A DNA stretch of 64,000 bases. Origin: a virus (taxonomy: Duplodnaviria; Caudoviricetes). The stretch covers positions 16,679-80,678 of IMG/VR virus record IMGVR_UViG_3300037470_000569; one strand, given 5' to 3'. The first letter of the stretch is position 1. Each line of letters starts with the position of its first letter. The notes beneath the pieces were generated by a model, which was not told the origin of the DNA, did no database searches, and worked only from the letters and a program-made list of their open reading frames with translations. A program made the position numbers and the translations under genes. Below, one piece after another: positions 870 to 56,321 of this stretch.

Positions 870-2344
870 TAGGCGGGGATCTCCACACCCACCCGGTGGA
901 TACCCAGCGTGCGAGCTGTCGCGTTGATCGTACGCAGGGAGGCTGTCGCTCGCATATACGTCGTAGCCCCAGGAATCGATGCAGCACCCGAGACGTCGAT
1001 CATCGGCCCGGAGCCCGTGCCAGCTGTCAGGTTGAATATCTGGCCGAATGGGTAACCGCCGCCAGGTCTCACGAAAACATAAAAGTCATAGACATTATTC
1101 TGCACGAGCGCCACGCCACTATCAAGAATGGCTTCCGTCGTCCCATTCTTCACGGTCATGAAGAAATTAGTCTGGGTCTTTCCACCATTAACATTGATCC
1201 GCTGGAATCCGTGACGGTGGCCAGCAGGATCATCCGCTCCAACACTGGTCGTGCCAGTCTGGTCGGTGAGACCGAGAAAGATGCGAGAGCCGGTGGATGC
1301 GCCGGAGTTGTTATAGGAGGCGTCCTCGAATGTGACCCGAGCGTGGTAGTAGTAGCCACACCAGGGCAAGACACTATCGCCACGGATCCATAGTAAGTTC
1401 GTAGAGAACACCGAGAAATCGGAGCCTGCTGTCGCGGCTGTTGACAGCTTAGTACGGAACCCCAGGATCGATGTTGGCGTGGGATGAGAGACGGTCGGTG
1501 TAGATGTCCCTGAGATAGTGCTCGGTGCCCACGATGAAAGCATGCAGCTAGATAGGGTCGTCCCTGTATTGGGAGTGGCCATCCACAGGTTCTCAGGACC
1601 GGTGATCATTGATCCAAGATACATTTCACGGTCATATGACCTGACGGCCAAGACCGGGCGGTAACCTAACCAGCGGGCATAGAACTTTAGGTGATCATCC
1701 TCAGCGAACGCGGCGGGCGTAGAGAACTGCGCTTGCAACGCTATCGCGCCAGAGCCGTCATCGGGGTAAAGCTCGAAGCCGCCCATCTGAGTGATGGGAT
1801 CTGAACCCGTATCAAGATGAGTGTCGGAGTGATCGGTGGAGGCGTATTCGCCGCCGTGTAGGTGATTACCAGCCGCGGCAGTCGTCGAAGTTGTTCCCAG
1901 CTCGGGTGTACGATTGATAAGCTGCCGCTTATCAACAATGTTCGCCGCGGTAATCGATGTGGCTGTCGCCGGGATGTAGACAACGCACAGCACAGTGCTC
2001 GACGCAGGGATCGCCGGAAACTCAGGCGCTGCTGCCGCGGTGCCAGCCACAATGGCGAGAGTCCCGCCTATATTAGTCTTAACGAGATCGAAACGATTCA
2101 GAGTGGCGTGTGCCGCTCCCGGTGTGACCGTCGCTCCAGTGATCGCTACGGGGGTAGAAGTGCCGACGTGAACTGAACCTGATGCAACCGCAACTCCGAG
2201 CGTAACACCCGAACTCGCGGGCGTACATACGCACCCGGACACGACCCCAAACGCATTGGCTGCGGCCGAGATAATGTCGAAATCAACACTGTCAGGTTCG
2301 GCCTGAGTAGGCCACGTAGCCCCACTCGTGTTCGGAATCGGCAT
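869..2344 (-). CDS. Minor tail / tail fibre-like protein (491 aa)
   Basis: A/T/G/S-rich beta-type composition, AAAGNHLH collar-like motif, tail-module context. Confidence 0.6.
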   Translation of the reverse strand: MPIPNTSGATWPTQAEPDSVDFDIISAAANAFGVVSGCVCTPASSGVTLGVAVASGSVHVGTSTPVAITGATVTPGAAHATLNRFDLVKTNIGGTLAIVAGTAAAAPEFPAIPASSTVLCVVYIPATATSITAANIVDKRQLINRTPELGTTSTTAAAGNHLHGGEYASTDHSDTHLDTGSDPITQMGGFELYPDDGSGAIALQAQFSTPAAFAEDDHLKFYARWLGYRPVLAVRSYDREMYLGSMITGPENLWMATPNTGTTLSSCMLSSWAPSTISGTSTPTVSHPTPTSILGFRTKLSTAATAGSDFSVFSTNLLWIRGDSVLPWCGYYYHARVTFEDASYNNSGASTGSRIFLGLTDQTGTTSVGADDPAGHRHGFQRINVNGGKTQTNFFMTVKNGTTEAILDSGVALVQNNVYDFYVFVRPGGGYPFGQIFNLTAGTGSGPMIDVSGAASIPGATTYMRATASLRTINATARTLGIHRVGVEIPA

Positions 2345-2356
2345 GAATCATTCCTA

Positions 2357-2758
2357 TCAGGCCGCGACGGGCGTGATCGCGAATGAGTGTGCCGTGAGCG
2401 TGAGCGTGTCACCCGTGTTCATAGTCTTCGGGACCGTGAGTGCAAACGAGTAGTAGAAGTTGCCAACCGTCAGCGCATCCCACACCGAGATGTAACCGAC
2501 GACCTCGCCATTCGTACCTGCCCATGAAGCCCACACCGGGAACGTGGCCACGATGGCCTTCACACCAGCTGCGGCTGCGCCCCAAGCAAGGACTACACGG
2601 GTGGTGACGCTCGACGGGTTGCTGGTGCCAGCCGCACCGGGATCGCCGGTGTTAGTATGCAACGCCGCGTATGTGTTCGCGGTCGCGGTGAACGTCGTAC
2701 CAGACAAGACGTTCAAGACCTTGTTGATGAAGTTAACGGGGTGAAGACCTGTGGCCAC
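2357..2758 (-). CDS. Small minor tail protein
   Basis: YAALHTNTGDPG...WDALTVGNF motif typical of actinophage small tail proteins. Confidence 0.6.
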   Translation of the reverse strand: MATGLHPVNFINKVLNVLSGTTFTATANTYAALHTNTGDPGAAGTSNPSSVTTRVVLAWGAAAAGVKAIVATFPVWASWAGTNGEVVGYISVWDALTVGNFYYSFALTVPKTMNTGDTLTLTAHSFAITPVAA

Positions 2759-2767
2759 AACCGCTCC

Positions 2768-3058
2768 TTACGATGATTGATGTGTTTCGAGTGCGGCCGC
2801 GACGTCGGGCGGCATACCAAATAGGTCAACAAGCTGGCTGGCCAAGGAGATGACCTTCTCCTGATCAATCTCGCATACATCAGCCCATTCACATGCGGAC
2901 GGCATGGCAGCGGCATACGCCTCGTAGAATTTGAAGGCGAGTGCTTCCGCATACTGACCGAGCGGTCCACGTTCAAGACCGATAGATCCGATGATCTCGC
3001 ACTTATATTCGACACCATCTGTGCCGGTGAAGAACGTTGTGCTAATCACATCACTCAT
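2768..3058 (-). CDS. Hypothetical protein (start reassigned to ATG 3058)
   Basis: TGATG coupling with the upstream stop. Confidence 0.55.
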   Translation of the reverse strand: MSDVISTTFFTGTDGVEYKCEIIGSIGLERGPLGQYAEALAFKFYEAYAAAMPSACEWADVCEIDQEKVISLASQLVDLFGMPPDVAAALETHQSS

Positions 3059-3405
3059 CAAACGCCTCCCTGCTGGAGAGTTGAATCCAATACGAATCGC
3101 CCCTTCACCCACGTACGTGTCTCACCACTATCCACTCGATCAAGTTCCCAGCGTCCACTGAAACTTGTCGCCCAAGCAGGCACAAGTAGTGGATTCCCTG
3201 TATCTAGTTGTAAGACCACCGGTGTACCATTGGGTGGCGTGACAGTGAAGAGCGCGACAGGTTCACCCTGGCACTGACCTTCCCAGAGATAACCTATCCA
3301 TGTACCCGACTCAAATGCCAGTGGTACCGTGACCTCGATGGTGACGAGATCGCCAGGTTCAGCGAAGATGTTTACCGTGGGCGCGAGTAGATCAAGCGTG
3401 CTCAC
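3058..3405 (-). CDS. Hypothetical virion protein (beta-sandwich-like)
   Basis: Coupled ORF in the structural operon; C-terminal TWVKGRF pattern. Confidence 0.5.
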   Translation of the reverse strand: MSTLDLLAPTVNIFAEPGDLVTIEVTVPLAFESGTWIGYLWEGQCQGEPVALFTVTPPNGTPVVLQLDTGNPLLVPAWATSFSGRWELDRVDSGETRTWVKGRFVLDSTLQQGGV

Positions 3406-4145
3406 GACTGCAACCTCGGGAGCGTCACATCAGGTGAATAGATCCGTGCACGGTCCTGGATCTTCCCTGGGTTATATGTCCTAATGAAGAGATCGGGAAT
3501 TGTGAGACCAGTCAAGCCTTCAGTGTCGCGTGTCATCGTCACACCGCGGCGTGTCACCGACACCGTCTTGAAGGGCAGTGCACAGTCTTCCCCACACATT
3601 TGCTTCATGATCTCAACGCCGAGGATACCCACCGCAAGCTTCCCTAAGTCAGTGAGCTCCGGACCAAATGACGCTGTGATCGACCAAACGCCCACTCCCC
3701 CCGTAACAGCCCAACTCTGACAGATGGGCCACTCGGCGCCAATCCGCACAAGCCGTACACCGTCGTAGAGCACCCAGTCATCTTCGTTGAGTACGATGTT
3801 ATCAACGGTGACGTACATGATGCGTGCGAACTCAGGCAGCAGAACTTCACTCGTGTTCGTACATGAACATACGTTTGCGCCACAGACACCACATGCGACG
3901 TTCAGCCACACACCATTGTAGAGACCCGGATGGGGCCAGCCATTGTCCAGTGCCCGATCGTCGTACGACGCGCACTCAGCACGACACGGTCGCACCGTTA
4001 CGGGGCAGTTGCCGAACTGTCTACCGGTCGCGCCCCAAAGGACCTCGGAGGCTGCTAAGAATGCCGCACCGGTGACCACGGGACTGTACCCGCAGATATC
4101 CGTACACAGCGTCGCCGGCCAGGGTGCGCATAGGTTCTCATACAA
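3402..4145 (-). CDS. Head-to-tail adaptor
   Basis: LWGATGRQFGNCPVTVRPC and C-terminal CALP..VSVTRRGV motifs as in actinophage adaptors. Confidence 0.65.
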   Translation of the reverse strand: MYENLCAPWPATLCTDICGYSPVVTGAAFLAASEVLWGATGRQFGNCPVTVRPCRAECASYDDRALDNGWPHPGLYNGVWLNVACGVCGANVCSCTNTSEVLLPEFARIMYVTVDNIVLNEDDWVLYDGVRLVRIGAEWPICQSWAVTGGVGVWSITASFGPELTDLGKLAVGILGVEIMKQMCGEDCALPFKTVSVTRRGVTMTRDTEGLTGLTIPDLFIRTYNPGKIQDRARIYSPDVTLPRLQS

Positions 4146-4161
4146 GAGCGCCCTCCCTGGC

Positions 4162-4824
4162 TTACGTGAGTGTTACTGCTCCACAGCCGGTCAGGGCGGG
4201 CAGAGCCTTGGAGACGATGTTGAACCCGTAGTGCGCATTCACAGGAACTGCGCTAATCCAGTCGTCACTCGTTGGACCGGCACCCCACGACGCGTGCGCT
4301 CTCTGGGTAGTCGCCATGAGAGACCATTCGAGGGCGTTATCCTCGATGGTGAAGTCGTTGAACCGACCGGCGTAGAGGTTGGGCCACGCCCAATAAGCAG
4401 ATGCAGGAATTGCACTCGAACATGCATTACCCGAGACGTTCTGCCAAACTTCCAGAGAGAAGTGTTGAGTGACGGTACCTTCGGTAACCCAGAAGCCAGT
4501 GCCAGTCGCAGGTGCACCGGTCGTGATCACGGTCGCTCCCGTGATGAGGTTCACGACATCCGGATCGATCGAGCAGAACTGGATGGTGAGGCTCGAGCGC
4601 TTATACTGATCAGGGCCACGCTCATTGACGCAGTATCCACCAGCCGCGTTCCGCACCTCATACTCGGTGCCATCCTCGTAGTCGTGGCTCACCTCGACCT
4701 GAACGAAACCGTCCGTGACGACAAGACCGCCGGCACCAGTCACCGGTACACCGCACTCAGTCAGGCGGGTGATTCGCATCCGAGTGCCCTGGATGGGGGC
4801 CGCGCAGAGAGTCGGTGCTGCCAC
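4162..4824 (-). CDS. Major tail protein
   Basis: GTRMRITRLTECGVPV...DGFVQVEVS...RNAAGGYCV pattern; follows the capsid genes. Confidence 0.7.
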   Translation of the reverse strand: MAAPTLCAAPIQGTRMRITRLTECGVPVTGAGGLVVTDGFVQVEVSHDYEDGTEYEVRNAAGGYCVNERGPDQYKRSSLTIQFCSIDPDVVNLITGATVITTGAPATGTGFWVTEGTVTQHFSLEVWQNVSGNACSSAIPASAYWAWPNLYAGRFNDFTIEDNALEWSLMATTQRAHASWGAGPTSDDWISAVPVNAHYGFNIVSKALPALTGCGAVTLT

Positions 4825-4834
4825 TGGTTATCTC

Positions 4835-5722
4835 CTAGTTCTCATTGAACGTACCCGCACTTTGACCACCGAGACTAATGAGAATAGCCAGGTGACAACA
4901 GTCCCAGTCGATCACATAAGTACGTTCCGCGACGACGATGACATCGTTCTTTGCTCGGTCGACGATCTCGGCATTCGTCGTACCTCTGACTTCGACAGGA
5001 CCTCGCCGCACCTGCACGGCGCCCGTCGCATACACCCAGCGACTTGCGGTGGGTTGCGACCCATCAGGTCCGGTGCCGGGATAGCCGTCACCGGACACCA
5101 CCATGTGATTGGACGGCGACCGCAGTCGACCACCCTCTCGCCGGAGTAAGCCATATGCTTCCCAGGAAGCAACGATCGAATTCGGTGCGTGGATAACTCC
5201 CTCGGCGCCGTAGCACCAGCCGAGAGCTTCCTCCAGTCGAGCAAGACCTTCGACTGGATCAACCGTGGCGCCACCGGAGACGACGACCGAAGCCGCCGTC
5301 TGCTCGATGACGCCGTCAGCACCGATGATGGCGGCGTTAGCAGCGAGGTGTGGAGTCGTTCCGAATGCACCAGTCCAGAACTCGCGCTCGACGGCGCGAC
5401 CCTCACCGTTGATCAGACCTTGTGTGGCATAATTCTGCGCATCATTGATGTATCCCGGTGGACCGCACACCGGCAATGAGTACACCGTGAAGGGCATTGC
5501 GCCTCTGACGCTCAAAGCGTCGATGCGTACCTTGTCGCCGGTACCCGTGATCGCGCAGCTTGCGGTGGTGACCGTTGCTGGAGCGCAGGTCCCGACCTCG
5601 AACCTGACGCCCATTTGCCAGTGTGGGTCTGTCTCGGTCTGAAGCTGTGCGACTGAAAGCAGACCGTAGGGAGTCGTGACACGCGTCGGCCGGGTGACGA
5701 TCGGTCGTGCGGCTGAGATCAC
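4835..5722 (-). CDS. Major capsid pentamer-type protein
   Basis: PYGLLSVA N-terminus, VEREFWTG, VVAERTYVI; directly after the capsid hexamer gene; RBS GAAGGGAG. Confidence 0.7.
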   Translation of the reverse strand: MISAARPIVTRPTRVTTPYGLLSVAQLQTETDPHWQMGVRFEVGTCAPATVTTASCAITGTGDKVRIDALSVRGAMPFTVYSLPVCGPPGYINDAQNYATQGLINGEGRAVEREFWTGAFGTTPHLAANAAIIGADGVIEQTAASVVVSGGATVDPVEGLARLEEALGWCYGAEGVIHAPNSIVASWEAYGLLRREGGRLRSPSNHMVVSGDGYPGTGPDGSQPTASRWVYATGAVQVRRGPVEVRGTTNAEIVDRAKNDVIVVAERTYVIDWDCCHLAILISLGGQSAGTFNEN

Positions 5723-5770
5723 GTGTCACGCTCCCTTCAGGTTCATCACGGGCTTGGTCAACCGCTACGA

Positions 5771-7471
5771 TCAGGGGCCGGTGTTGGCGCAGGTAAGGCT
5801 GGCCGCACCGGTCATACCACTGGCGCAGAAGTCGAGGGTGACCAACCGGGACTGGTGTCCGATCATCGCCGTCAACTTACACTCCTCGGTCCAGGCCGCG
5901 GTGTGGTCGTTCTTGGCGTTGAGCGCGGAGTCCCGCACAACGCCGAGGTTCAGGTCGAGGCCCATACCGACGACCCAGGTACCTGCGGCGTAGATGAGGA
6001 ACTGCACGAAGTTCGGCCACTGGGTGCGCGGCGTGATCTGACCGAGCTGATCGCCCGAACCGAGCTGCCAGTCGCTGACGTACTGGACCCGCACGTAACG
6101 CGCATCGAACCAAGCGTTCATCTGGGCGTCGGTAACGGCCATCATGTTCTCGACGCCGGTGCGCTTAGCGAGATCCGAGCGAATCGCTTCCTTCGCCCAG
6201 CGGGGGAGCACGACCTCGAGGATCTCGTTATCACACATCCGGAACCGCTCGCGGTAGTCGGCGGCCTGCAGTCCGATGGCACCGAGCAGACCCGATGCGA
6301 GCGGGACGTCAGTACCAGTGACAGTAACCGAGGTCGAACCCGCGACGATGTCGGCAATGATCCGCTGATTCATGATGTGCTCATGAGCATTCATCACGAG
6401 CCGGAGGTAGTTGGAGATCATCTCCGGGTAAGCCGACTCAGTCAGGTTGCCAGCGGTGATGCAGAGACCGTGACACGCGAGCCGCAGCTCATTGAACGAC
6501 GGGCACGGAACTCGAACGCAAGGCTTGGTGCCAGCGCCCGTGACGGCGAGAATGTCATCGCCTTCGGTCCAGAGCCAGATGTCATCCAGTGCATCGGCGA
6601 TCGTCGGCGACGTAGGCCACCGAATGCCACCGCGAGTCACGCCGACGGTCGGCACGTCGATGATGCCGTCGCCGCAGGCGATGTTGAAGAAGTCGTAGAT
6701 GATCGTGCTGGGTGCACACCAGCCGCCGGCGGCGACGAGGTTCTGCGGATCGGCCGCACGATGCATCACGTCCCAGATCTGCTCCGGAGCGGTCTCCCGG
6801 TCGAGGACGAGCGGGTACTCCTTGCGAATCGTAGCGACGGTGGTGTAGCCCGACGGCATCGCCAGCGTGTTCGCCCGACGGTGCACCGCATCGGTGAGGT
6901 AGTCCAGCGTCTCGAGCTGGCGACCCGCGGCGTACATCGGCACGTCGGGAGCGGTGACAACCTGAGCAGTCGGATAGTTGAGCCCGATGCCAGGGTCCGG
7001 AGCTCGCCGAGCAACCTCACTAAGCGGAACATTGAGGCGCTTCCGCTTCACGACCAGCGCACCAGTCCGAGTCTGTCCAGCGCCGGCGGACGCCGTGACC
7101 GGCACAGGCTCGGGCACCACCTCAGGCTCGGGCTCCGGTGCCGGCTCGGGCTCGGGCACCTCGACGGCGGCGGTCTCGACACGCACGCCCATCGACTGGA
7201 GTTGAGCATCGAGCTCGGCTGCTTCAGCAGCCAGTGCCTCGTTCTCTTCGTCGCGTCGCTTCGTCTCGACGTTGACGCGTTCGATCGCGGCAGTGATCGT
7301 GCGCAGCTCGGTGACCTTGTCGGCCGAGAGCGCGCCCTCACTGCGAATGGCATCGAAGGTACGCAGGAGCTCGGAGCCCAGCGTCTCGAGGTCACCGTCA
7401 GTCAAGGACGTCAGGTTCTCGGGGACGACCAGGTTCTCATCGCCTCCCGAGGCTTGCGTTTCAGGCTCCAT
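5771..7471 (-). CDS. Major capsid (hexamer) protein with N-terminal coiled-coil
   Basis: LVAAGGWCAPS..YDFF, DVPTVGVTRGGIRWPTSP; N-terminal helical scaffold region plus PE-rich linker. Confidence 0.85.
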   Translation of the reverse strand: MEPETQASGGDENLVVPENLTSLTDGDLETLGSELLRTFDAIRSEGALSADKVTELRTITAAIERVNVETKRRDEENEALAAEAAELDAQLQSMGVRVETAAVEVPEPEPAPEPEPEVVPEPVPVTASAGAGQTRTGALVVKRKRLNVPLSEVARRAPDPGIGLNYPTAQVVTAPDVPMYAAGRQLETLDYLTDAVHRRANTLAMPSGYTTVATIRKEYPLVLDRETAPEQIWDVMHRAADPQNLVAAGGWCAPSTIIYDFFNIACGDGIIDVPTVGVTRGGIRWPTSPTIADALDDIWLWTEGDDILAVTGAGTKPCVRVPCPSFNELRLACHGLCITAGNLTESAYPEMISNYLRLVMNAHEHIMNQRIIADIVAGSTSVTVTGTDVPLASGLLGAIGLQAADYRERFRMCDNEILEVVLPRWAKEAIRSDLAKRTGVENMMAVTDAQMNAWFDARYVRVQYVSDWQLGSGDQLGQITPRTQWPNFVQFLIYAAGTWVVGMGLDLNLGVVRDSALNAKNDHTAAWTEECKLTAMIGHQSRLVTLDFCASGMTGAASLTCANTGP

Positions 7472-7679
7472 GGTTCCTCACGTGGTGATCGGGTTCTACA
7501 CCGTCCGATCCCTCGAGCCGTGAGGTTCACCTCTCGCTCTCACGCGGACTATATCTACGCGTGACTGTCGCGGTTGGATCTCTGACCGCGCCGACACTCG
7601 GTGCCGGTTGCTCAGGCGAATAGTACCACCGGTCTGTGCAGCCGTCGACACTCCAGGACAGATTCTTCCAAGGATCCTG

Positions 7680-16373: not shown

Positions 16374-16916
16374 TCAGAAGTAAACCTCCGTGAGTCCATT
16401 GTTATGTAGAAACACCTGATGCGGTAGGTCCCCGAGCAGCTCATTCACCGCACGCCGCACAGGAAACGACGGCTGACTCTGCGGGATGTGATGATTGAAC
16501 CACTCCACGTTCGTGTCGTGGAAGATCATCGCACCACCCTCACGTACACGCGGCCGGAAGAGTTCAATCTCCGCTCGTGTCTGGAGATATTCATGTGTCG
16601 TGTCGATGAAGATGATGTCAGCCTGCTCAGGCAGCGCCGCAAGCACGTGCTCATCAGTGTCGTAGCCCTCGAGGAACGTCCAGCGATCGAGTGGAACACC
16701 ATTCCACAATCGCACAGGATCAACCGACCACAAGTGACCGTCAGTCTGCTCCAGTGCATGAAGGAACGCCGCTGTCGATGCGCCATAACGAACACCCAGC
16801 TCGATGACCGTCTTCGCCTCGAGCTTCTGCACGACATGAACGAGCTCGGTGAGGTGCTCGTTGATATCCGACGGTGTGGCAACTGCTGCTTCATAGAGTT
16901 GCTGATATATGCCCAC
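16374..16916 (-). CDS. Class I SAM methyltransferase (Methyltransf_24-like)
   Basis: IELGVRYGAST, DIIFIDTTHEY, IFHD. Confidence 0.8.
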   Translation of the reverse strand: MGIYQQLYEAAVATPSDINEHLTELVHVVQKLEAKTVIELGVRYGASTAAFLHALEQTDGHLWSVDPVRLWNGVPLDRWTFLEGYDTDEHVLAALPEQADIIFIDTTHEYLQTRAEIELFRPRVREGGAMIFHDTNVEWFNHHIPQSQPSFPVRRAVNELLGDLPHQVFLHNNGLTEVYF

Positions 16917-19268: not shown

Positions 19269-22200
19269 TTAGATCATATCAAACTGAAGGATTCCATCCT
19301 CGCTCTTCCCGATGAATTTCAGCTGGGTGTTGCGCGGAAAGATCAGTTCATTCTCGTAATCCGTACCGGCGATCGTCGTCTTGCCCGCCGGTATAGCGAT
19401 CTCAATGCGACGACCGCTCGACCCGAAGCTGTTGCCCGTCATTTTCGATGTGGACGTCGACATGAAGCCATGCTCTGTAATCGTCTCACCCGGCTTAAGC
19501 TTCCCCAGATCACTCGCGTATCTGCCCTTAACGCCGCGGTTTACGAAGAGCGTTTCATTGTTCTTCTTGCCATATACCGAGAATGCCTCATCCATTTTCT
19601 TAATATTTCGAGCAGTCGTCGGTGAAGCTACTTCCTGACCACGTGCAGCCCTATTCATCGGTGTGTAGCCCGAGCCGGTGTATGCTTTATGCGCCCTCAA
19701 CACAGCATCATTCGGCTTAGCTTTGTAGTCACTCTCAATCTGACTACGTGACGACTTACGAAGCATGTCCGCGTTCTTCAACGCTGTCTTACGTGTCAGT
19801 GAGTTCGGCTGCCGAATGCTCGCCGGTATACTGGATGCCACACCAGGTACGTTACTGTGCAGCCCGGGAACAGCACTAGAGACGCCGCCACCACCAGTCT
19901 TAACACCTCCGGAAGATCCGGGTGCACTCGCATTGTGACGTGTCGCTACCTTGTACTTCAGATAGTTCGTCTTCTTCTTATGCTGCTCCGGAGTAAGAAC
20001 ACCTTCCTTTAGCTGTGCATCGAGAAAGAACTGCTGCTTCGCTTCATCAACGTTATAATGTTCATCTTTAACTTTACCCGCTGTGAGCTTCTTCTTCGGA
20101 GTTGCTCCGACGCTACTGGGTCCGCTGCTCGAAGAAGGAGTACTTGGTCTATTAAGCTTATTCTTCTTTATGATGAATGCACTGCCATCCTCAAGCTCAA
20201 CCATGACCGAATCATCGGACGCCGTCCCGATGACCTTTCCCTTTGAGCCTGAAGATGTCGTAATCTTATCACCCGTCTTAAACTCGGGACCCTTTGACTT
20301 CGACTCACCTCCTCCCACACCTTTCTTAGTAAGCACCTGCTTACCATAAAGGACAGTACCCTTATCCGTCTTAACCTTGACGAAGTTACCGTGCTCACTT
20401 ACAATCTCACCTTCAGCACCACCAGGAAGACCGACCTTATCACCAGTCTTAAGACCAGGACTCTTCGCCGCAGCGTGCTCGCTCGGGGACAACCCACCCA
20501 AAGATGATGGCTTGGTGTCAGGTGCCTTCTTCGACTTAACCTTCGGCTTCCCCGGACCCTCGCCTCCAGCACCACCAGACTTATTAATGCGCTTAGAAGC
20601 CTTCACCTTGACATAATAAGTCTTATACTTATACTCTTTCTCACTGATGGCGCCATTCGCGTACTGCCCCTCGATGTCCTTGAGCTCGGCAGCCTCGGAC
20701 GCGTTCAGTCGCTTAGTGTCAACCTTCCCAGGTGCAAGCTTCTTCTTACCCGAGCTCTGAGCGGAAGCCCCACCACCACCGCCGCCGCCGCTCTTAGGTG
20801 CGAACTTACCTTGTGAATCACGCACATAGCGATCGAACATAACGAGAGGATTAGCTGACGACGTTAGCGTGTCAAAGTGCCAGGTAATTGCACACCGGCA
20901 GTTCACGCGAGTATGAGCGGAAGCATCGGGATCGCCAGGGTAATCCAGCTTCTCGCCGTCCACCGTGAACTTACCATCCAGTGGTACCGTCTGCCCGTCA
21001 GCGACACGGTGCTCCAGTCGGGTTCGCTTATCTCGAGTCGAGTTGTGGACTACAATACCGTTCGCTACATACCAGCCGCACTCGGTCGTAAGGTCATATA
21101 CATCATGCCAGCCCGCATCGATCTTAACAATGTCGACGATCTCATCAAGCAATATCTGAGTGGAGAAAGTTGCTTGAGTATCGGACGAAGATTGGGTGTT
21201 AACAGTGGTGTCGTTGCTCGGCATCTCCGTGAAGCTGGGATCACTCTTCGATCTCGCTCTGATATGCAGCGATTGACGATTGATAAGCTCGATGATACTA
21301 AGCGTAGTGAGATTGCGCGTAAGGGTGTTGCTACTCGAGCGACCAATGGAACCCTCAAATTGACTCTGGAGCAGAGACGACGACGCGCTCAGATTAAAGA
21401 GAGTCTCGAGTTCAATATCGGTAAGTACGAACAACTCATCGCTACTTGGCTGCGTGAACGGGGCTTGCAGCCTCGAACGCAGGTCGCCGTTGAGTTCTAC
21501 AACCTCGACCTCGCACTCGATAGGCTTGACATCGAGATCCACCACAGTGCTCATCATCCGTCGACTCGAGAGACCGTCCGTCGCCGTACGAAACACCTCA
21601 TCGATTTGGGGTGGTTCGTTCTCTACATCTGGGTTAAGCCCGAAATCGGTTACATTCGTGGTGATGTTCACGCCGTCCAGGGAGTGAGTACTGATATAGT
21701 GGACGAGATAATCAGATGTGCTGAGATCTCGAGCGCTGATCCAACCACGCGTGGTCAATATCGGGTGATTCGGGGTAACGGTGAGGATGTCACGCGAGGT
21801 CTGAATACGTATCAGTACTCCCGGCCCACGTCGTCGTTTCACGACCTCGAGTGGTTGCGGTGACCATACTTTCGTATCACCAGTGACACAAAGCCATGTC
21901 TTCTTACTGGGCTGTGCTTCAGGTGGCAGCAGCCGAACCTGCTGAAGCGCTCCAGCATTCGACGCCCCGATGACCTCTGTGCGAGCGATCATCGTGGCTC
22001 GAGCGTTCGTCGTCTCCAGCACATCCTTCACTCGAGCCGATAGCTGCGGAATCGACTCACCGCTCTGCATACCCACGATCAACTCATCGCGGGTCCGCAG
22101 CCACATATCATTACCGACGCCGACGAGTTGGTTCTCCACCCGCGTGAGGTAAGCGTGAGCAATCGGTTGCTCCGCACTCCACAACACAGGTGCACGAACA

Positions 22201-23117
22201 GAAACTTCCTGAAGAACGCGGTCGGCGGTCTTCCGCATCACCGCTTCGAGCTCGGGTATGATCGCGTTCTTTACTTCGAGACGCCACGCTCGCTCGATGA
22301 GAACGAGTTCATCCAGTGTCACTGATGCCGGGAAGATCGGCGCAATTGGTGTACTGGGTGGAGGCAATCCTTCAGGTAGCGGCTCAGTAGCAGCGGCAGT
22401 CAGTGATTCAGTGTTAACCGGCGGTAGGTTGTTACCCCGCATTAAAGGGTAATCGACTGACACCCCACCAAGCGCGAACCTGATGCGATCAAACTCGATG
22501 GATCCCTCAAGCTCCACCGCTTCATCGATGAAGTACTTAAGGTGCTCAACATCGTCGTATGCGAGACACATGTGAGCGACCCAGGGTAGGTGTTGCTGAG
22601 GCATCCCCCAAGCGCACTTCACCGCGACCTGCGTGATGATGTCCTGGATGCGTTCATGTGCGAGCTCAATGCTCGCACCGCCGATTGCCAAGTTCAGACT
22701 TGGTTCATCGGTGGCATTCCAGATACTCGCGCCAAACACCTGCCCCTCATACCACTCGCTGCTCTCAGTACTTAACTTCAATGCCCGGTGAAGTTCAGCT
22801 TGTACTTCACCCGGAATATCATCTGAGTTGCCAAGATAAGCAAGCGTGACGTGTAGTGAATCGGGTGATTCACCGACATTCTCATCGCCGATCGCCCAGC
22901 GCTCAGAATCGACTGGAACGAGTGCGATCATCGCTCCGGTGTGCGGCTCACCGGTCGTCGAGTCGATCTGTGGAGGACCTTCAACTCCAGCCGCCGTCAG
23001 TGCTTGAGTAGTACCTACACGTACCGCTCGACGCAACGCCTGCGAGACCAGCCGGTCGAGGCGTTCAATGAGTGTGTCTTGTTCTTCCTCAGTGAGACTT
23101 ACATCAACACTCGGCAC
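19269..23117 (-). CDS. MuF-family minor head protein fusion: 2H phosphoesterase + MuF (intein-interrupted) + repeats + ADP-ribosyltransferase
   Basis: LHVTL and AHMCL (2H); RATMIARTE, KTWL|STRDKRTRLEH, NCRC (MuF); NRGV, FMSTS, ENE (ART R-S-E). Confidence 0.85.
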   Translation of the reverse strand: MPSVDVSLTEEEQDTLIERLDRLVSQALRRAVRVGTTQALTAAGVEGPPQIDSTTGEPHTGAMIALVPVDSERWAIGDENVGESPDSLHVTLAYLGNSDDIPGEVQAELHRALKLSTESSEWYEGQVFGASIWNATDEPSLNLAIGGASIELAHERIQDIITQVAVKCAWGMPQQHLPWVAHMCLAYDDVEHLKYFIDEAVELEGSIEFDRIRFALGGVSVDYPLMRGNNLPPVNTESLTAAATEPLPEGLPPPSTPIAPIFPASVTLDELVLIERAWRLEVKNAIIPELEAVMRKTADRVLQEVSVRAPVLWSAEQPIAHAYLTRVENQLVGVGNDMWLRTRDELIVGMQSGESIPQLSARVKDVLETTNARATMIARTEVIGASNAGALQQVRLLPPEAQPSKKTWLCVTGDTKVWSPQPLEVVKRRRGPGVLIRIQTSRDILTVTPNHPILTTRGWISARDLSTSDYLVHYISTHSLDGVNITTNVTDFGLNPDVENEPPQIDEVFRTATDGLSSRRMMSTVVDLDVKPIECEVEVVELNGDLRSRLQAPFTQPSSDELFVLTDIELETLFNLSASSSLLQSQFEGSIGRSSSNTLTRNLTTLSIIELINRQSLHIRARSKSDPSFTEMPSNDTTVNTQSSSDTQATFSTQILLDEIVDIVKIDAGWHDVYDLTTECGWYVANGIVVHNSTRDKRTRLEHRVADGQTVPLDGKFTVDGEKLDYPGDPDASAHTRVNCRCAITWHFDTLTSSANPLVMFDRYVRDSQGKFAPKSGGGGGGGASAQSSGKKKLAPGKVDTKRLNASEAAELKDIEGQYANGAISEKEYKYKTYYVKVKASKRINKSGGAGGEGPGKPKVKSKKAPDTKPSSLGGLSPSEHAAAKSPGLKTGDKVGLPGGAEGEIVSEHGNFVKVKTDKGTVLYGKQVLTKKGVGGGESKSKGPEFKTGDKITTSSGSKGKVIGTASDDSVMVELEDGSAFIIKKNKLNRPSTPSSSSGPSSVGATPKKKLTAGKVKDEHYNVDEAKQQFFLDAQLKEGVLTPEQHKKKTNYLKYKVATRHNASAPGSSGGVKTGGGGVSSAVPGLHSNVPGVASSIPASIRQPNSLTRKTALKNADMLRKSSRSQIESDYKAKPNDAVLRAHKAYTGSGYTPMNRAARGQEVASPTTARNIKKMDEAFSVYGKKNNETLFVNRGVKGRYASDLGKLKPGETITEHGFMSTSTSKMTGNSFGSSGRRIEIAIPAGKTTIAGTDYENELIFPRNTQLKFIGKSEDGILQFDMI
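21042..21890 (-). mobile_element. Class 1 intein (283 aa) in the MuF domain
   Basis: C1-VTGDT, block B TPNH, VYDLTT...VVHN, +1 Ser; removal restores KTWLSTRD. Confidence 0.9.
21105..21863 (+). CDS. HTH + DUF559/Vsr-like endonuclease, antisense and nested inside the intein
   Basis: N-terminal YLSGESCLSIGRRLGV HTH; EQLIATWL..GL.PRTQV.V.FY.LDL..D.EIH...LGWFVLYIW nuclease pattern. Confidence 0.8.
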   Translation: MPARIDLNNVDDLIKQYLSGESCLSIGRRLGVNSGVVARHLREAGITLRSRSDMQRLTIDKLDDTKRSEIARKGVATRATNGTLKLTLEQRRRRAQIKESLEFNIGKYEQLIATWLRERGLQPRTQVAVEFYNLDLALDRLDIEIHHSAHHPSTRETVRRRTKHLIDLGWFVLYIWVKPEIGYIRGDVHAVQGVSTDIVDEIIRCAEISSADPTTRGQYRVIRGNGEDVTRGLNTYQYSRPTSSFHDLEWLR

Positions 23118-24906
23118 AATCGACCTCGCCAGTCAGCAGACGCTGGAGGCTCGCACGATCGTATTCAGTCTCAGTATCAAGTAGGACGCGACAGTACTGC
23201 CCAAGATAACGCACGGTCAACACTGGATCATAACCCACTTCACCCAGCGTCGACAGCGCATGTGAGAACACTCCATCCAGTGGGTCGGTTCGACTTCCAC
23301 CCTTCAAGCGGTTACGTCCAACCTCGAGTGCTCGCTTGACGTGACCCTCAAGAACAAGCAGTCGTGGGTCAAGACTCAAATTCTCAGGTGCGGATTCCTC
23401 ATCCGGGTCATCGAATGTATCAGGCGGACCCTCGTCAGGATTCTCATCAGCAGGATCAGCTTCTTCACCATTCCCAGATGGAGCCGGTGATTCTGACACT
23501 GGGTCGATGACCTCAAGCTTGAGACCTAGACCCTCCATCGCCGCAGGAGCAAGCTGGGCATTCGAGAGCAACTTCTTATAAGCCCACGACGCTAGTTCTT
23601 CATCAGTGGGCATGTCCGACTCGGCGAACCCAAGCGTGCGACGAACCGAGTCTCCACCGATCTCGCCTCGATCATAGAGATCGAGCGTATGCTTCGTCTT
23701 ATCAGGTCTGACGACAAGATCAGACGTGTCAGCCCAGATGACAATGCCCTCGGTATCGACACCCTGTGCCTCGAGCACTGGGTGTAGATATCCTCGTGTT
23801 AGGTCAGCGGTGAGCAGCTCCAGCATCGGGCGGGCGTGTACTGAAATCGCCGACTCTTCGATCTGCCAGGCATTCCAGTGACTGGTGTCGCCCATACCGA
23901 GGATGATCTCAGCGGGAATATCCAGTGCCGTGGCAACTCGACGTTGTGCTGAGATGCGCATGTCGAGTGAACGGTCGCTGAGATCGGTCGACCAGTTCAA
24001 CAGCTTGAACTTATCGACGTGCTCAGCGGGAACCTCAACGGGAATAGGCACGATCTGTTCAGCAGTGCCAGGATTCTGCACCGCCCGCATCATGACCTGC
24101 ATGACCTCGGTGACGAACGGGTGCTGCCCCGAGTTGGGTGAACCCGGCGTTGGGGCCGGTGCTGTTGGGAAGGTAGCTTCCTGCGGAAACACGAGTAGTC
24201 CAGCACCAGCGACGCGTGACACAAGTGTCGCATCAATGTACTGGTTAATGCGACGAAGTTCTCTCAACGGACCAATCGCTGCATGAGCTGGGGAGTCGGG
24301 ACGCCAGAACCAGCGGGGATGGGGTCGCCAGAACTTGACGACCATCGTCTGATCAGGCGGAAGGATTGCCCACTGCCCCTCGTCATACTGGAGCTCATAC
24401 ACCGGAGCGCTGACCGGAGTCGCCGGCGACTTGAGTCGGATGACATCCGAGCTGATGACTCCCCAGTTCGACCCCAGATGTGTCAGGTCCGCGAGACCTT
24501 CAGAGCCGACCAGATACCCCAGTCCGGGTACCGAAAGCTGTACAGTGAACGACCACAGCAGTTGTGACTGCCCACCGATGCCACCGGCGAGTTCCTCAAC
24601 CGCATCCGCAGCCGGGCCATCATCCAGCACCTCGGGTTCAGTATCACCCGTGATGATTCGTGCCGCACGCAAGCGCGCTTGTGAGAGGAGGTTCGCCATC
24701 CAGTTCACGCCAAACTTCAGCGCTTCACCATCAGGACCGTCGTAAAAGCTCCACGCTTCGTTCTGCCAATCAACCCGTTGTCTCGAAGGATCATCGAGTC
24801 GGGTACCCTGGAGTGGTCGTGATGCGGCGATCAGTGAACCATCACGACTGGCGATGCGCGAACCTTCGGGCCCTGGGAGGATGACCACGTGTGGATCAAG
24901 CGTCAC
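23104..24906 (-). CDS. Portal protein
   Basis: WQNEAWSFYD, WRPHPR, DSP...LRELRRI, SRVAGAGLL; follows terminase. Confidence 0.85.
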   Translation of the reverse strand: MTLDPHVVILPGPEGSRIASRDGSLIAASRPLQGTRLDDPSRQRVDWQNEAWSFYDGPDGEALKFGVNWMANLLSQARLRAARIITGDTEPEVLDDGPAADAVEELAGGIGGQSQLLWSFTVQLSVPGLGYLVGSEGLADLTHLGSNWGVISSDVIRLKSPATPVSAPVYELQYDEGQWAILPPDQTMVVKFWRPHPRWFWRPDSPAHAAIGPLRELRRINQYIDATLVSRVAGAGLLVFPQEATFPTAPAPTPGSPNSGQHPFVTEVMQVMMRAVQNPGTAEQIVPIPVEVPAEHVDKFKLLNWSTDLSDRSLDMRISAQRRVATALDIPAEIILGMGDTSHWNAWQIEESAISVHARPMLELLTADLTRGYLHPVLEAQGVDTEGIVIWADTSDLVVRPDKTKHTLDLYDRGEIGGDSVRRTLGFAESDMPTDEELASWAYKKLLSNAQLAPAAMEGLGLKLEVIDPVSESPAPSGNGEEADPADENPDEGPPDTFDDPDEESAPENLSLDPRLLVLEGHVKRALEVGRNRLKGGSRTDPLDGVFSHALSTLGEVGYDPVLTVRYLGQYCRVLLDTETEYDRASLQRLLTGEVDCAEC

Positions 24907-30486: not shown

Positions 30487-30836
30487 GATTGCGATCGTAG
30501 CCGCTCAAGGTCCTCAACCGTTCGCACGCCCAACTTACGACGGGCTGCGACCGTCATGACCTTGCGCTGCACTTGCTTCTTCGAGGTGAACGTGCGCTGT
30601 TTCCAAGCATCATCCGAGTGTCTCCAGCAATACTCTTCACCTGGGAACGCCGGCTCACGACACCGCAAGCTGCGTTCACCGTGAGTGCAACGCTCCAGTC
30701 CTGAAGCGTTCTCCCAGGGGATCGTCTCAAGTAACTGGGCATGTAATCGTAAAAGCTCCGAGGTCAGTACATCGGGACGCCTACGCCGTTTACGGACGCG
30801 GCTTGAAGCGGTGACCGGTGGTGAACCAGACATCAT
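30483..30836 (-). CDS. Zn-finger protein resembling the N-terminal HGGxSTG-like part of TerS
   Basis: RCTHG...RCREPAFPG..YCWRH; start uncertain. Confidence 0.45.
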   Translation of the reverse strand: MMSGSPPVTASSRVRKRRRRPDVLTSELLRLHAQLLETIPWENASGLERCTHGERSLRCREPAFPGEEYCWRHSDDAWKQRTFTSKKQVQRKVMTVAARRKLGVRTVEDLERLRSQS

Positions 30837-31779
30837 CGAGTGGGGTAGCGGAGCTATCGACGATGGACGGCTTGACAGGTCGATTCGGATCGATCGCTTC
30901 CAGCCAGATCAACGCCCGGAGGAGGTCAAGCTCCTCAGGACCGAGATGCATGACGTCGGTTCCTTCAACCACGAAGGCGTGACTTTGGATGCTCGCACCA
31001 GCTCCCAGAACCTCGTCAACATAGACACTTCCGGGCTTGCTACTGATGATGATCTTCTGGGTCATATCGTCTTCCTCCCGTGCGGGTTCGTCGATGTCGT
31101 CGGCCGGATGATAAGACCACCGACGGAAGTTGGGGTCGTAAATCTGATTGTGGTCGGTGTCTGGAATGACGACGCTACCGTACTCCTGATAGAGGTCCGT
31201 GAGATCCGACAGTCGACGATACGAACGGTCACCTGCGTTGAATGCGGTGCCACCCGTGCCCTGCCCAGATCCCGATCCACCTGCGGACTGCATGAAGACC
31301 TTGACTCGAGGGTCACGCCGAAACGCCTCCAGCACCCAGTACGGCCCATAGATCCCAAGTGGTCGACGGTTGGTATCGGCGATTCCCTGGAAGTACTCGC
31401 GGATGGCAGGGAGGTCGCTCTCAAGGGGGAAGCCTGGCTTAGGTCCCGAGCCATCAGGATCGCCGACATCGCCGATCGCACAGATGATCGGTTTATCATC
31501 GGGCCACCTCAGGTAGTTGGCCCACTGCTCAAAGTAGTTACCGTCCGCTCGTCCCTGAGGTCGACCTCCTCTGGGCCGATCCACCTGCCCACGCTGACCA
31601 AGCAGCGCCACCCGCACTCCAGCATCGAAGAGGTCATGCAGTTCACCCTTACCTAGGCCCTTCCAGTCATCGCCAAGGTACCGCAGGACAACGTCGTAGC
31701 CCCGGTCTCGGATGAGCTGAGGGCTCGGTCGCGCTCCGCTGTAGTCAAGCGCCTGACCGACAATCGGTCGGGTGGCCAT
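30790..31779 (-). CDS. Endolysin, DUF1906/GH25-like
   Basis: LDYSGARPS..LIRDRGY..VLRYL...ELHDL..AGV; YFQG...GIYG. Confidence 0.8.
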   Translation of the reverse strand: MATRPIVGQALDYSGARPSPQLIRDRGYDVVLRYLGDDWKGLGKGELHDLFDAGVRVALLGQRGQVDRPRGGRPQGRADGNYFEQWANYLRWPDDKPIICAIGDVGDPDGSGPKPGFPLESDLPAIREYFQGIADTNRRPLGIYGPYWVLEAFRRDPRVKVFMQSAGGSGSGQGTGGTAFNAGDRSYRRLSDLTDLYQEYGSVVIPDTDHNQIYDPNFRRWSYHPADDIDEPAREEDDMTQKIIISSKPGSVYVDEVLGAGASIQSHAFVVEGTDVMHLGPEELDLLRALIWLEAIDPNRPVKPSIVDSSATPLDDVWFTTGHRFKPRP

Positions 31780-54675: not shown

Positions 54676-55455
54676 GTGACCGTACCTCTTTCAATACTCA
54701 TTCACGCGTTCTCGAAGGTCGGTAAGACCACGCTCGCGGGAACGTGTCCTCCGCCTGTTCTCTTCTTCGATGCTGAAGGTCGAACGCGGTTTCTTCCCAG
54801 TGCAAGCAACGTGACGGCAATGTACGGACGACCCGTGCGCCTCACACACTGGGTACCTAGTGGACCACCGCCTCTCTACGATGGGACGTGGGATATCTGC
54901 GTTGTCCAGTGTAATGACTGGATAACGGTTGAGAGAGCGTATCAATGGCTCACACAAGGGCAGCATCATTTCCAGTCGCTCGTGGTCGACTCAATCACCG
55001 AGATCCAGCGGCGTTGTCGTGAAGCGCTTGAGAATACCGGCGGCTTCGAGCATTGGGGCGCACTTCTCGAGCGCATGTCACGGATCATTCGTGGTCTCCG
55101 TGACCTAACACTTCACCCTCTTCGTCCACTAGCTGTCGTGATGTTCATTGCCGAGACACGGCAGCGCGGTGACAGTGGTAAGTGGAAACCTTCAATGCAA
55201 GGGCAGATTGAGACCGCTTTGCCCTACTGGATGGACGTCATCGGGTATCTTTACAAAGAGAACACGATGGATGCACATGGGCAGCCAACCGGACCCGAGG
55301 TTCGAAAGCTGCTCATCACACAACACCCTCTTTATGAAGCGGGTGAAGCAGTACAGGGCGTCTTAGGCGACGTCATCCTCGACCCGAACGTCTATGTGAT
55401 GCATCAGACGTTGAATCAAGCCTTCGGGCTCAGCACACATGGAGAACCGACTTGA
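54676..55455 (+). CDS. AAA_24/Sak4-like ATPase recombinase
   Basis: SKVGKT, FFDAEG, VVDSITE, IGYL. Confidence 0.8.
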   Translation: MTVPLSILIHAFSKVGKTTLAGTCPPPVLFFDAEGRTRFLPSASNVTAMYGRPVRLTHWVPSGPPPLYDGTWDICVVQCNDWITVERAYQWLTQGQHHFQSLVVDSITEIQRRCREALENTGGFEHWGALLERMSRIIRGLRDLTLHPLRPLAVVMFIAETRQRGDSGKWKPSMQGQIETALPYWMDVIGYLYKENTMDAHGQPTGPEVRKLLITQHPLYEAGEAVQGVLGDVILDPNVYVMHQTLNQAFGLSTHGEPT

Positions 55456-56321
55456 CCGTCATCAACTTCCAGCAGGCGCTCGCCCAAGCGAGTACCGTCA
55501 GTTTCGACCCGCTGCCCGACGGCACTTACGACCTCGTCTGCACCGAGACGAAGCCGACGGACAGCTCTACCGGAAAGCCCATGATCCGCACGAAGTACCG
55601 CGTGGAGACTGGACCGCACGCGGGCAAGACGGTGTTCAATCAGTATGTGTTCTCGCCCGATAGCCCGACCGCACTGGCGATCTTCTTCCGACACATGGCG
55701 TTTCACGGTCTCGACACGCAGTTCTTCAACGGACAGCCAGCGTGGGAGCAGGTCGCCGCGACGTTGGTGAACCGACGGGTGCGCATGGAGCTCGGTACCC
55801 GGATGTGGCAGGGTCAGCCGCGCAACGAGGTCAATAACGTCATGCCGCCCGATGCCCAGGCCGCCGGTCAAATGGCTATGCAACCCGGTCCCGTCGGCGC
55901 ACCGGCCGTTGCGCCTCCCACTATGATTGCTCCGATCGTTCCCAGCCCAATGGCAGCTCCTGCCCCAGCACCGATGCCGGTGATGCCTGCTCCGACGATG
56001 CCGCCTCCGATCGCCCCTGGTCCCGTGGCGCCGCCCATGCCTCAGGTTCCTGCGCCAGCTCCGATGCCGGCTCCGGCTCCAGTCGCACCAGCCCCGATCG
56101 CTCCTGCTCCCGTGGCTACTCCCGTGGCTCCGACTCCTGTGGCTCCGGCCGCTCCGGCGGCTCCTCCCGGTTGGGCGTTCGTCAATGGTCAGTGGGTTCC
56201 CGAGACTCCGGCGCCGGCCCCGCAAGGCCCGGTCACACCTCCGACGCAGGCATTCGAGCAGCCGTACACTCCGCCGGCTGAGGCCCCTCAGGTGCCGCCC
56301 CCGCCACCCATCCCCAGCTAG
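55452..56321 (+). CDS. DUF669-type ssDNA-binding protein with Pro/Ala-rich tail
   Basis: FDPLPDGTY...STGKPMI...GPHAGKTVF; follows the Sak4-like gene. Confidence 0.8.
   Translation: MTVINFQQALAQASTVSFDPLPDGTYDLVCTETKPTDSSTGKPMIRTKYRVETGPHAGKTVFNQYVFSPDSPTALAIFFRHMAFHGLDTQFFNGQPAWEQVAATLVNRRVRMELGTRMWQGQPRNEVNNVMPPDAQAAGQMAMQPGPVGAPAVAPPTMIAPIVPSPMAAPAPAPMPVMPAPTMPPPIAPGPVAPPMPQVPAPAPMPAPAPVAPAPIAPAPVATPVAPTPVAPAAPAAPPGWAFVNGQWVPETPAPAPQGPVTPPTQAFEQPYTPPAEAPQVPPPPPIPS

Follow-up and report, generated by a model that had tools for sequence, protein, structure and literature searches.

In a 64,000-nucleotide (nt) stretch of an uncultivated virus of the Caudoviricetes (IMG/VR record IMGVR_UViG_3300037470_000569, positions 16,679–80,678; hereafter the window, whose own coordinates are used throughout), we identified a class-1 intein of 283 amino acids (aa) on the minus strand (21042–21890) that contains, wholly within it and on the opposite strand, a 252-aa nuclease gene (21105–21863, plus strand). 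We consider it likely that this is a mobile intein organized as a two-strand module, in which the antisense nuclease most likely serves as the homing endonuclease. The host gene (19269–23117, minus strand) is a 1282-codon open reading frame (ORF) for a MuF-like head-morphogenesis protein with a C-terminal ADP-ribosyltransferase (MuF-ART), made as a 1282-aa precursor. The source record comprises 80,678 bases, is judged 99% complete and holds a single copy of the element. From the sequence, structural models and relatives, we infer antisense transcription and translation, the cleavage specificity, homing and splicing of the window element.

The intein interrupts the MuF protein at KKTWL|STRD, an insertion position that we call site A. 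The preliminary description of this locus, made from the sequence alone, had claimed intact splicing blocks (C1, TPNH and HN/S). These can be read directly: C1, block B T39-P-N-H42, H282-N283 within the terminal NGIVVHN motif and Ser+1 are all present, as expected of a class-1 intein. PF14890 (Intein_splicing) scores above its curated threshold (40.3 bits, cut-off 35.8), as does the C-terminal model TIGR01443 (16.7 bits, cut-off 15.6, residues 263–283), and the N-terminal model TIGR01445 falls slightly under its cut-off (22.0 bits, cut-off 24.5). C1, T39, P40, H42 and N283 are invariant across 22 intein homologues. The intact blocks, together with the interruption of a conserved MuF motif, suggest that the intein splices. 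A structural model built on these 22 homologues is confident at residues 1–69 and 245–283 only. The first of these segments is the beta-rich N-terminal splicing lobe (21684–21890, minus strand; blocks A and B, with the block B TPNH at 21765–21776), which has pLDDT (predicted local distance difference test) scores of 77–96. The second is the C-terminal splicing region (21042–21158, minus strand; blocks F and G, HDVYDL ... NGIVVHN), with scores of 87–95. The intein middle (residues 134–242; 21165–21491, minus strand) has no confident fold, with pLDDT below 50 throughout, and no Pfam domain was found in it.

The nuclease gene (P0001) runs from an ATG at 21105 to a TGA at 21863. As the preliminary description had stated, both this frame and the intein frame are free of stops. 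The register is exactly codon-opposite, such that nuclease residue j faces intein residue 263-j, and in this register a TTA, CTA or TCA codon on one strand is a stop on the other. These three codons make up 2.4% of codons both in the exteins and in 15 other window genes, which gives an expectation of 6–8 in the 332-codon open stretch, where none is observed (P about 0.002 to 0.0003); the longest stretch free of them in the 15 other genes is 205 codons. The nuclease ORF has 26 Leu and 16 Ser codons, none of them TTA, CTA or TCA, and elsewhere in the window TCA is the commonest Ser codon. Taken alone, the openness of the antisense frame is only moderately unusual, so the case rests on homology, fold and selection.

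An AlphaFold2 model of the nuclease, based on a 92-sequence alignment, has a mean pLDDT of 88.6 and a predicted template modelling score of 0.72. It comprises an N-terminal helix-turn-helix, which would be the DNA-binding module (residues about 9–55; 21129–21269, plus strand), a helical linker and an alpha/beta core (residues about 103–224; 21411–21776, plus strand), for which the best solved-structure matches are Vsr and I-Bth0305I. On this model, the antisense product is predicted to carry a Vsr-like fold and catalytic core of the PD-(D/E)XK type. The profile of the nuclease family also matches 3hrl by sequence (2e-4), with D135 and E144 pairing with the acidic D and E of 3hrl. Y17, R49, N133 and D135 are invariant in the family and all are kept in the window protein; on the plus strand, N133 and D135 (21507–21509) are followed by the near-invariant E144 (21534–21536) and then by H146, H150 and P152. 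An exhaustive HMMER search with the nuclease returned 1883 cluster representatives (clusters at 50% identity) at E≤1e-3 and 911 at E≤1e-10, which means that the family holds at least 1,883 clusters, spanning phages of Actinobacteria and Proteobacteria. The preliminary observation held up in every particular, and the earlier assignment of a helix-turn-helix and a Vsr/DUF559-like nuclease is supported by Pfam hints, by the confident fold, by a layout common to 107/107 loci and by frame-specific selection, the last two of which are described below. On profile scores, the protein is a distant superfamily relative of MTES_1575 and DUF559 and no formal member of either Pfam family.

The preliminary description had proposed comparing the ratio of nonsynonymous to synonymous substitution (dN/dS) in both frames across homologues. 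We did so by the Nei-Gojobori method in eight Guernseyvirinae phages, mostly Jerseyvirus (L002, L005, L009–L014), whose 1860-base MuF genes align without indels. In the exteins, dN/dS is 0.09–0.13 in the sense (intein) frame and about 1.3–1.6 in the antisense (nuclease) frame, and in the intein middle it is 1.13 in the sense frame and 0.12 in the antisense frame. Values for the N-terminal splicing lobe are 0.43 (sense) and 0.56 (antisense), and the 21 intein codons outside the nuclease gene, where an antisense value is not applicable, give 0.02. Variation in the exteins peaks at sense position 3; in the intein middle the peak moves to sense position 1, corresponding to antisense position 3 (chi-square p 3e-14 for the shift). 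A comparison of the window with four site-A relatives at the same codons extends this to the window's own lineage: in the intein middle the nuclease frame is 32–43% identical and the intein frame 18–24%, whereas in the N-terminal lobe the intein frame (39–52%) exceeds the nuclease frame (30–41%) in 3/4 comparisons. The nuclease frame is under purifying selection in relatives and is better conserved than the intein frame in the window's lineage. Given this frame-specific selection and identity, the intein middle is a read-through linker, with its sequence dictated by the nuclease gene.

These data also bear on whether the plus-strand ORF is simply a chance open frame arising from codon bias, with a conservation that mirrors the intein protein. 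A codon-opposite frame is often open in GC-rich genomes. There are other long antisense ORF pairs in the window, openness alone reaches only P about 0.002, and the nuclease segment QYRVIRG does mirror intein block B. Chance does not account for the confident model of the plus-frame protein (pLDDT 88.6, vs below 50 for the intein middle), its matches to solved nucleases, obtained independently by fold and by profile, the contrast in dN/dS between the plus frame (0.12) and the intein frame (1.13) or the higher identity of the plus frame at the same codons. We consider a chance ORF refuted by these four lines of evidence and give it practically no credence.

Conserved motifs of both proteins coincide at 21756–21776, where the plus strand encodes QYRVIRG, in the last beta-strand of the nuclease, and the minus strand encodes TPNHPIL of intein block B. 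The double use of these codons, noted at the outset, was confirmed on the reverse complement. Each motif is conserved in its own family and each lies in a confidently modelled strand, and about 35 codons around block B encode two folded, conserved proteins simultaneously. With about 750 bases specifying two opposite-strand proteins, the locus is among the cleaner examples that nature offers of antisense dual coding in a DNA virus.

The nuclease also appears to bring its own expression signals, which are reverse complements of codons in intein blocks F and G. The ATG of the window nuclease is the reverse complement of the block F His codon, and in most loci the start codon has this origin (HVY-D/N-L). 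Relatives have GAGG or GGAGG 8 nt before the start, formed by the reverse complement of the block F Asp/Asn-Leu codons; in the window, a Shine-Dalgarno-like AAGG (21090–21093, plus strand) lies 11 nt before the ATG and is the reverse complement of the block F Asp-Leu codons. Among 32 distinct loci, CTC serves as the block F Leu codon in 28, vs a 25% background (p 1e-13), and the block F His codon is CAT in 28, vs 35% in the surrounding sense frames (p 2e-9). Further upstream, a -10-like TACAAT (21051–21056, plus strand; 48 bases from the ATG) is the reverse complement of the block G Ile-Val codons in GIVVHN. The preliminary description had pointed to this box, and its origin holds on the sequence. 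Similar hexamers are enriched there across loci: TATAAT-like hexamers (≥5/6) occur 21–80 nt upstream in 19/32 loci, vs 7% of background windows, and at the block G position itself (48–57 nt upstream) in 11/32 loci, vs 1.4%. Jerseyviruses carry TGcTATAAT at this position. The preliminary description also raised the idea that transcription from this strand might adjust MuF-ART expression. Two other candidate signals, a promoter-like site at 20608–20635 (the sole one on the plus strand) and a terminator-like hairpin at 21594–21613, were discounted, as both fall within shuffled-sequence expectation.

The same arrangement is widespread. A tblastn search with the nuclease matched 102 GenBank phage records, with hosts that include Salmonella, Gordonia, Pseudomonas, Mycobacterium, Escherichia, Aggregatibacter, Vibrio, Klebsiella, Pantoea and Rhodococcus. 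We inspected 18 of these records: in all of them the match is opposite the gene for MuF or for another head-morphogenesis protein, and in none is the nuclease named. A peptide-pattern search of IMG/VR gave 363 confirmed nuclease relatives. At all 80 of the IMG/VR loci that we fetched, the host frame is open over 310–1212 codons and the codon-opposite register is stop-free, the other two registers averaging 12 and 7 stops. Plus-frame stops in homologous inteins, which the preliminary description had named among the observations that would speak against its inference, were found at none of the 80. In total, layout, register and an open host frame are shared by 107/107 loci (24/24 in a first set, 80/80 from IMG/VR and 3 further).

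Gene annotation at these loci is uneven: the nuclease goes unnamed in the 18 GenBank records inspected, and in some metagenome contigs it is called and the MuF gene is lost. In the record of Salmonella phage vB_StyS-sam (L002), a 133-aa 'hypothetical protein' (2730–3131, plus strand) is a fragment of the nuclease frame. The record of Escherichia phage Snoke (L005) annotates the intein and does not list the nuclease gene, and its intein mat_peptide (2435–3064, 630 nt) is at odds with the 273 residues that a note in the same record gives for the intein. Two inteins, at site A and at the second site described below (site B), interrupt a MuF-like gene (1849–6519, minus strand) of a 134-kb metagenome contig (L105), each with its own antisense nuclease paralogue (3001–4185 and 4243–5391, plus strand); the gene caller found both nucleases and missed the 1557-codon host frame.

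Such gene calls raise the question of whether the host gene is really 'fractured' and carries a split intein, as in the genes described by Dassa et al (2009), in which a nuclease of the Vsr-like superfamily sits between the split-intein halves. That gene callers sometimes call the nuclease and miss the MuF frame would fit such an arrangement. However, the MuF frame runs without a break across the nuclease gene at 107/107 loci, even though amino-acid change there is neutral, and an open frame under neutral change needs selection for read-through. The sense frame also shows no internal stop or restart signal. The window has a single uninterrupted frame of 1282 codons, and we rejected the split-intein explanation, the probability of which we put close to nil. 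Gene calls had likewise made two long family members (P0008 and P0048) seem free-standing; that status was rejected, as both are antisense within MuF inteins. We regard as evenly balanced the further proposition that the nuclease, rather than being a free-standing gene captured now and then, is the obligate partner of a single intein lineage and has co-evolved with it since ancient times, with start codon, ribosome-binding site and -10 box in the mirrored blocks F and G kept by selection on synonymous codons. If so, two proteins and their expression signals would lie on one stretch of DNA and form a single bidirectional mobile unit. The proposition is put forward because all 107 loci have the nuclease inside an intein and in the same register, including the seemingly free-standing long forms and the double-intein MuF gene.

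Two insertion sites account for the occurrences listed here. Site A (W-x|S/C-T-x-D-x-x-T-R) is occupied in the window, L019, Mycobacterium phage Sejanus, L105 and L107, and site B (H-x-N|C-R-C) in Jerseyviruses, most Gordonia phages, a Pseudomonas phage, Aaphi23 and most IMG/VR loci. Either MuF site is found empty in phages occupied at the other; in the window, the NCRC motif lies downstream and is uninterrupted. Within the Jerseyvirus group, the intein is present in 58/391 phage records matching the Jerseyvirus MuF gene. Most of the other records, in rows sampled down the ranking, align as two segments lying about 1,043 bases from each other, with the 819-base intein precisely absent, and the exteins of one intein-free allele are 98% identical to those of an intein-bearing allele. 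This is the sporadic presence and absence that homing, or precise loss, predicts. Best-position diversity in this group is 0.1–0.3 in the intein (MuF codons 244–516), vs 0.35–0.5 in the flanking exteins, and a lower divergence of the intein than of the exteins fits recent spread between host genes.

We propose the following scheme for the window element. The minus strand would be translated into the MuF-ART precursor, with the intein folded only as its splicing lobes; the linker of about 175 residues between the lobes would be unconstrained apart from staying stop-free, so that the precursor can be made and then spliced. The plus strand, codon-for-codon opposite the intein, would give the 252-aa helix-turn-helix and Vsr-like nuclease. 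By analogy with I-Bth0305I, this nuclease would recognize and cut intein-free MuF alleles at KTWL|STRD, and repair by recombination would then introduce a joint copy of intein and nuclease gene into the cleaved allele. Carriers that can be cultured in laboratory strains exist, among them Jerseyvirus phages, Escherichia phage Snoke and Gordonia phage Vivi2, which makes expression, cleavage and homing directly testable.

Several observations weigh against this scheme. Both the dN/dS values and the presence/absence data come from the Jerseyvirus group, in which the intein occupies a different MuF site than that of the window. A megablast search of 20800–22100 against phages gave no match, and IMG/VR scans with P0001 and the N-extein as queries found no close relative of the window virus, whether intein-bearing or intein-free. 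Alignment depth (22 sequences, vs 92 for the nuclease) accounts in part for the low pLDDT of the intein middle. The window's Shine-Dalgarno sequence is a weaker CTT/AAGG variant with 11-nt spacing, and the TACAAT box has no -35 match and was not called as a site by a consensus scan. Finally, the Pfam matches of the nuclease are all under their gathering cut-offs: MTES_1575 (PF18741) at 5e-7 (30.2 bits, cut-off 38.2), DUF559 (PF04480) at E 0.064 (13.6 bits, cut-off 20.6) and HTH_58 at 1.3e-4.

Two alternatives draw on these points. The antisense protein could be real and selected without being a homing endonuclease, acting instead as a DNA-binding protein of repressor type, a nuclease for anti-host action or superinfection exclusion, or a Vsr-like repair nickase, with its gene merely lodged at the one point of a packed late operon that, owing to an unconstrained linker, has room for a second gene. 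By fold, the repair enzyme Vsr is the closest match, N-terminal helix-turn-helix modules occur in regulators too, and the Pfam family scores are those under the cut-offs; the other best match, I-Bth0305I, is itself a homing endonuclease, and the sporadic distribution in the Jerseyvirus group is of the kind that homing predicts. We consider this alternative unlikely, though it is the most serious of those weighed here. The second is that the nuclease gene of the window is a recently inactivated relic, the intein being fixed and vertically inherited and the open frame not yet decayed. The weak Shine-Dalgarno variant and missing -35 are compatible with this, the IMG/VR scans found no related intein-free allele of the window virus to indicate recent movement, and several VSR-type inteins look vertically inherited according to a recent preprint (10.1101/2025.01.02.630785). 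But the ORF is intact at full family length, with all the invariant residues (Y17, R49, N133, D135) and a confident fold, and all three stop-mirror codons are still avoided. The nuclease frame is moreover better conserved than the intein frame at 32–43% identity to relatives, a divergence too deep for an unselected frame to survive, which weakens the relic explanation to the point where we think it quite improbable. A homing endonuclease encoded antisense to its intein stays our preferred reading.

A portal-like gene (23104–24906) adjoins the MuF-ART gene upstream. In the MuF-ART ORF (19269–23117), Pfam places Phage_Mu_F (4.1e-11) in two stretches flanking the intein and ADPrib_exo_Tox (PF03496, 1.4e-12) at residues 1125–1267 of the 1282-aa precursor. 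The protein is unusually long, with a faint 2'-5' RNA ligase-like match in its N-terminal region (E 0.061) and several Gly/Lys/Ser-rich linkers with repeated small 'KTGDK...V' modules and weak YajC and SH3-like profile matches. It may be of the ejected MuF-toxin type. Among the other long antisense ORF pairs in the window, two have a Pfam match on one strand only: an Rv2525c-like glycoside hydrolase domain (9.5e-9) at 30790–31779 (minus strand) and DUF669 (1.3e-4) at 55452–56321 (plus strand). The antisense partners of these two are probably codon-bias artefacts. In a third case, the ORFs at 5723–7564 (plus strand, 613 aa) and 5771–7471 (minus strand, 566 aa) overlap almost completely, with a Pfam match on neither. 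Rv2525c-like glycoside hydrolases are typical of actinophage lysins, and this domain hints at an actinobacterial host for the window virus; relatives of the window nuclease occur in proteobacterial phages too.

Related arrangements have been reported in several systems. I-Bth0305I, of the 'EDxHD' Vsr-like homing endonuclease family (Taylor et al, 2011; PMC3239194), shares the Vsr-like core with the window protein; its gene lies on the sense strand of a group I intron and it binds DNA through NUMOD, whereas the window protein has an HTH_58-type helix-turn-helix. Fractured genes (Dassa et al, 2009; PMC2677866), in which the two parts of a split intein flank a free-standing gene for a Vsr-like or GIY-YIG endonuclease, resemble the window in that the intein region of a phage-type gene harbours a Vsr-like endonuclease gene with its own translation, but they have two host ORFs and a split intein where the window has an unbroken host frame on the opposite strand. 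Endonucleases encoded on the strand opposite the self-splicing element that they mobilize are known as anti-sense LAGLIDADG genes in inteins (Gorbalenya, 1998; Gogarten et al, 2002; both as cited in 10.1101/2025.01.02.630785) and as antisense homing-endonuclease genes in nuclear group I introns (PMC9548176). These belong to the LAGLIDADG or His-Cys box superfamily, and the intron's opposite strand is not simultaneously protein-coding. The ShiLan domain, an HNH endonuclease hidden out of frame within the DNA methylase of an actinophage (Arsenault et al, 2025; PMC11855218), is likewise an insertion read through in the host frame with a nuclease from another frame of the same DNA. It differs in lying on the same strand, in its HNH nuclease and in having no detectable intein splicing domain; a same-strand, out-of-frame arrangement of this type was considered for the window and rejected. 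The text of Kelley et al (2016; mBio) has no mention of MuF, capsid, antisense, opposite, reverse or free-standing. Among views of intein origins, the window element favours the one in which the splicing domain came first and the endonuclease invaded later.

The closest precedent is the preprint of Gosselin, Arsenault and Gogarten (bioRxiv 10.1101/2025.01.02.630785, version of 20 Oct 2025), which describes anti-sense VSR-like endonucleases in minor-capsid inteins of actinophages, surveyed in PhagesDB actinophages only. The window shares with these a complete antisense endonuclease ORF in a MuF intein with a continuous host frame, and it differs in coming from an uncultivated virus and in its W|S-T-x-D site. 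The earlier judgement that the arrangement is rare rather than certainly new was sound: the window is an example of a layout already described, to which it adds detail and no new kind. In its Discussion of endonuclease VII-like homing endonuclease inteins, the preprint has a cluster 47 that includes the Gordonia phages Angelicage ('Angelicase'), Affeca and Keitabear; in our analysis the MuF genes of these three carry an antisense Vsr-like ORF. The main text of the preprint makes no mention of promoters, ribosome-binding sites, start codons or Salmonella, and it contains none of the points that make up the obligate-partner proposition. Our analysis adds frame-specific dN/dS and embedded start signals, and places the module in phages of Salmonella, Escherichia, Pseudomonas, Aggregatibacter, Klebsiella and Pantoea as well as hundreds of IMG/VR contigs. 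The aspects that may extend the published account are this breadth outside actinophages, the apparently obligate association with the intein and the start signals that mirror blocks F and G.

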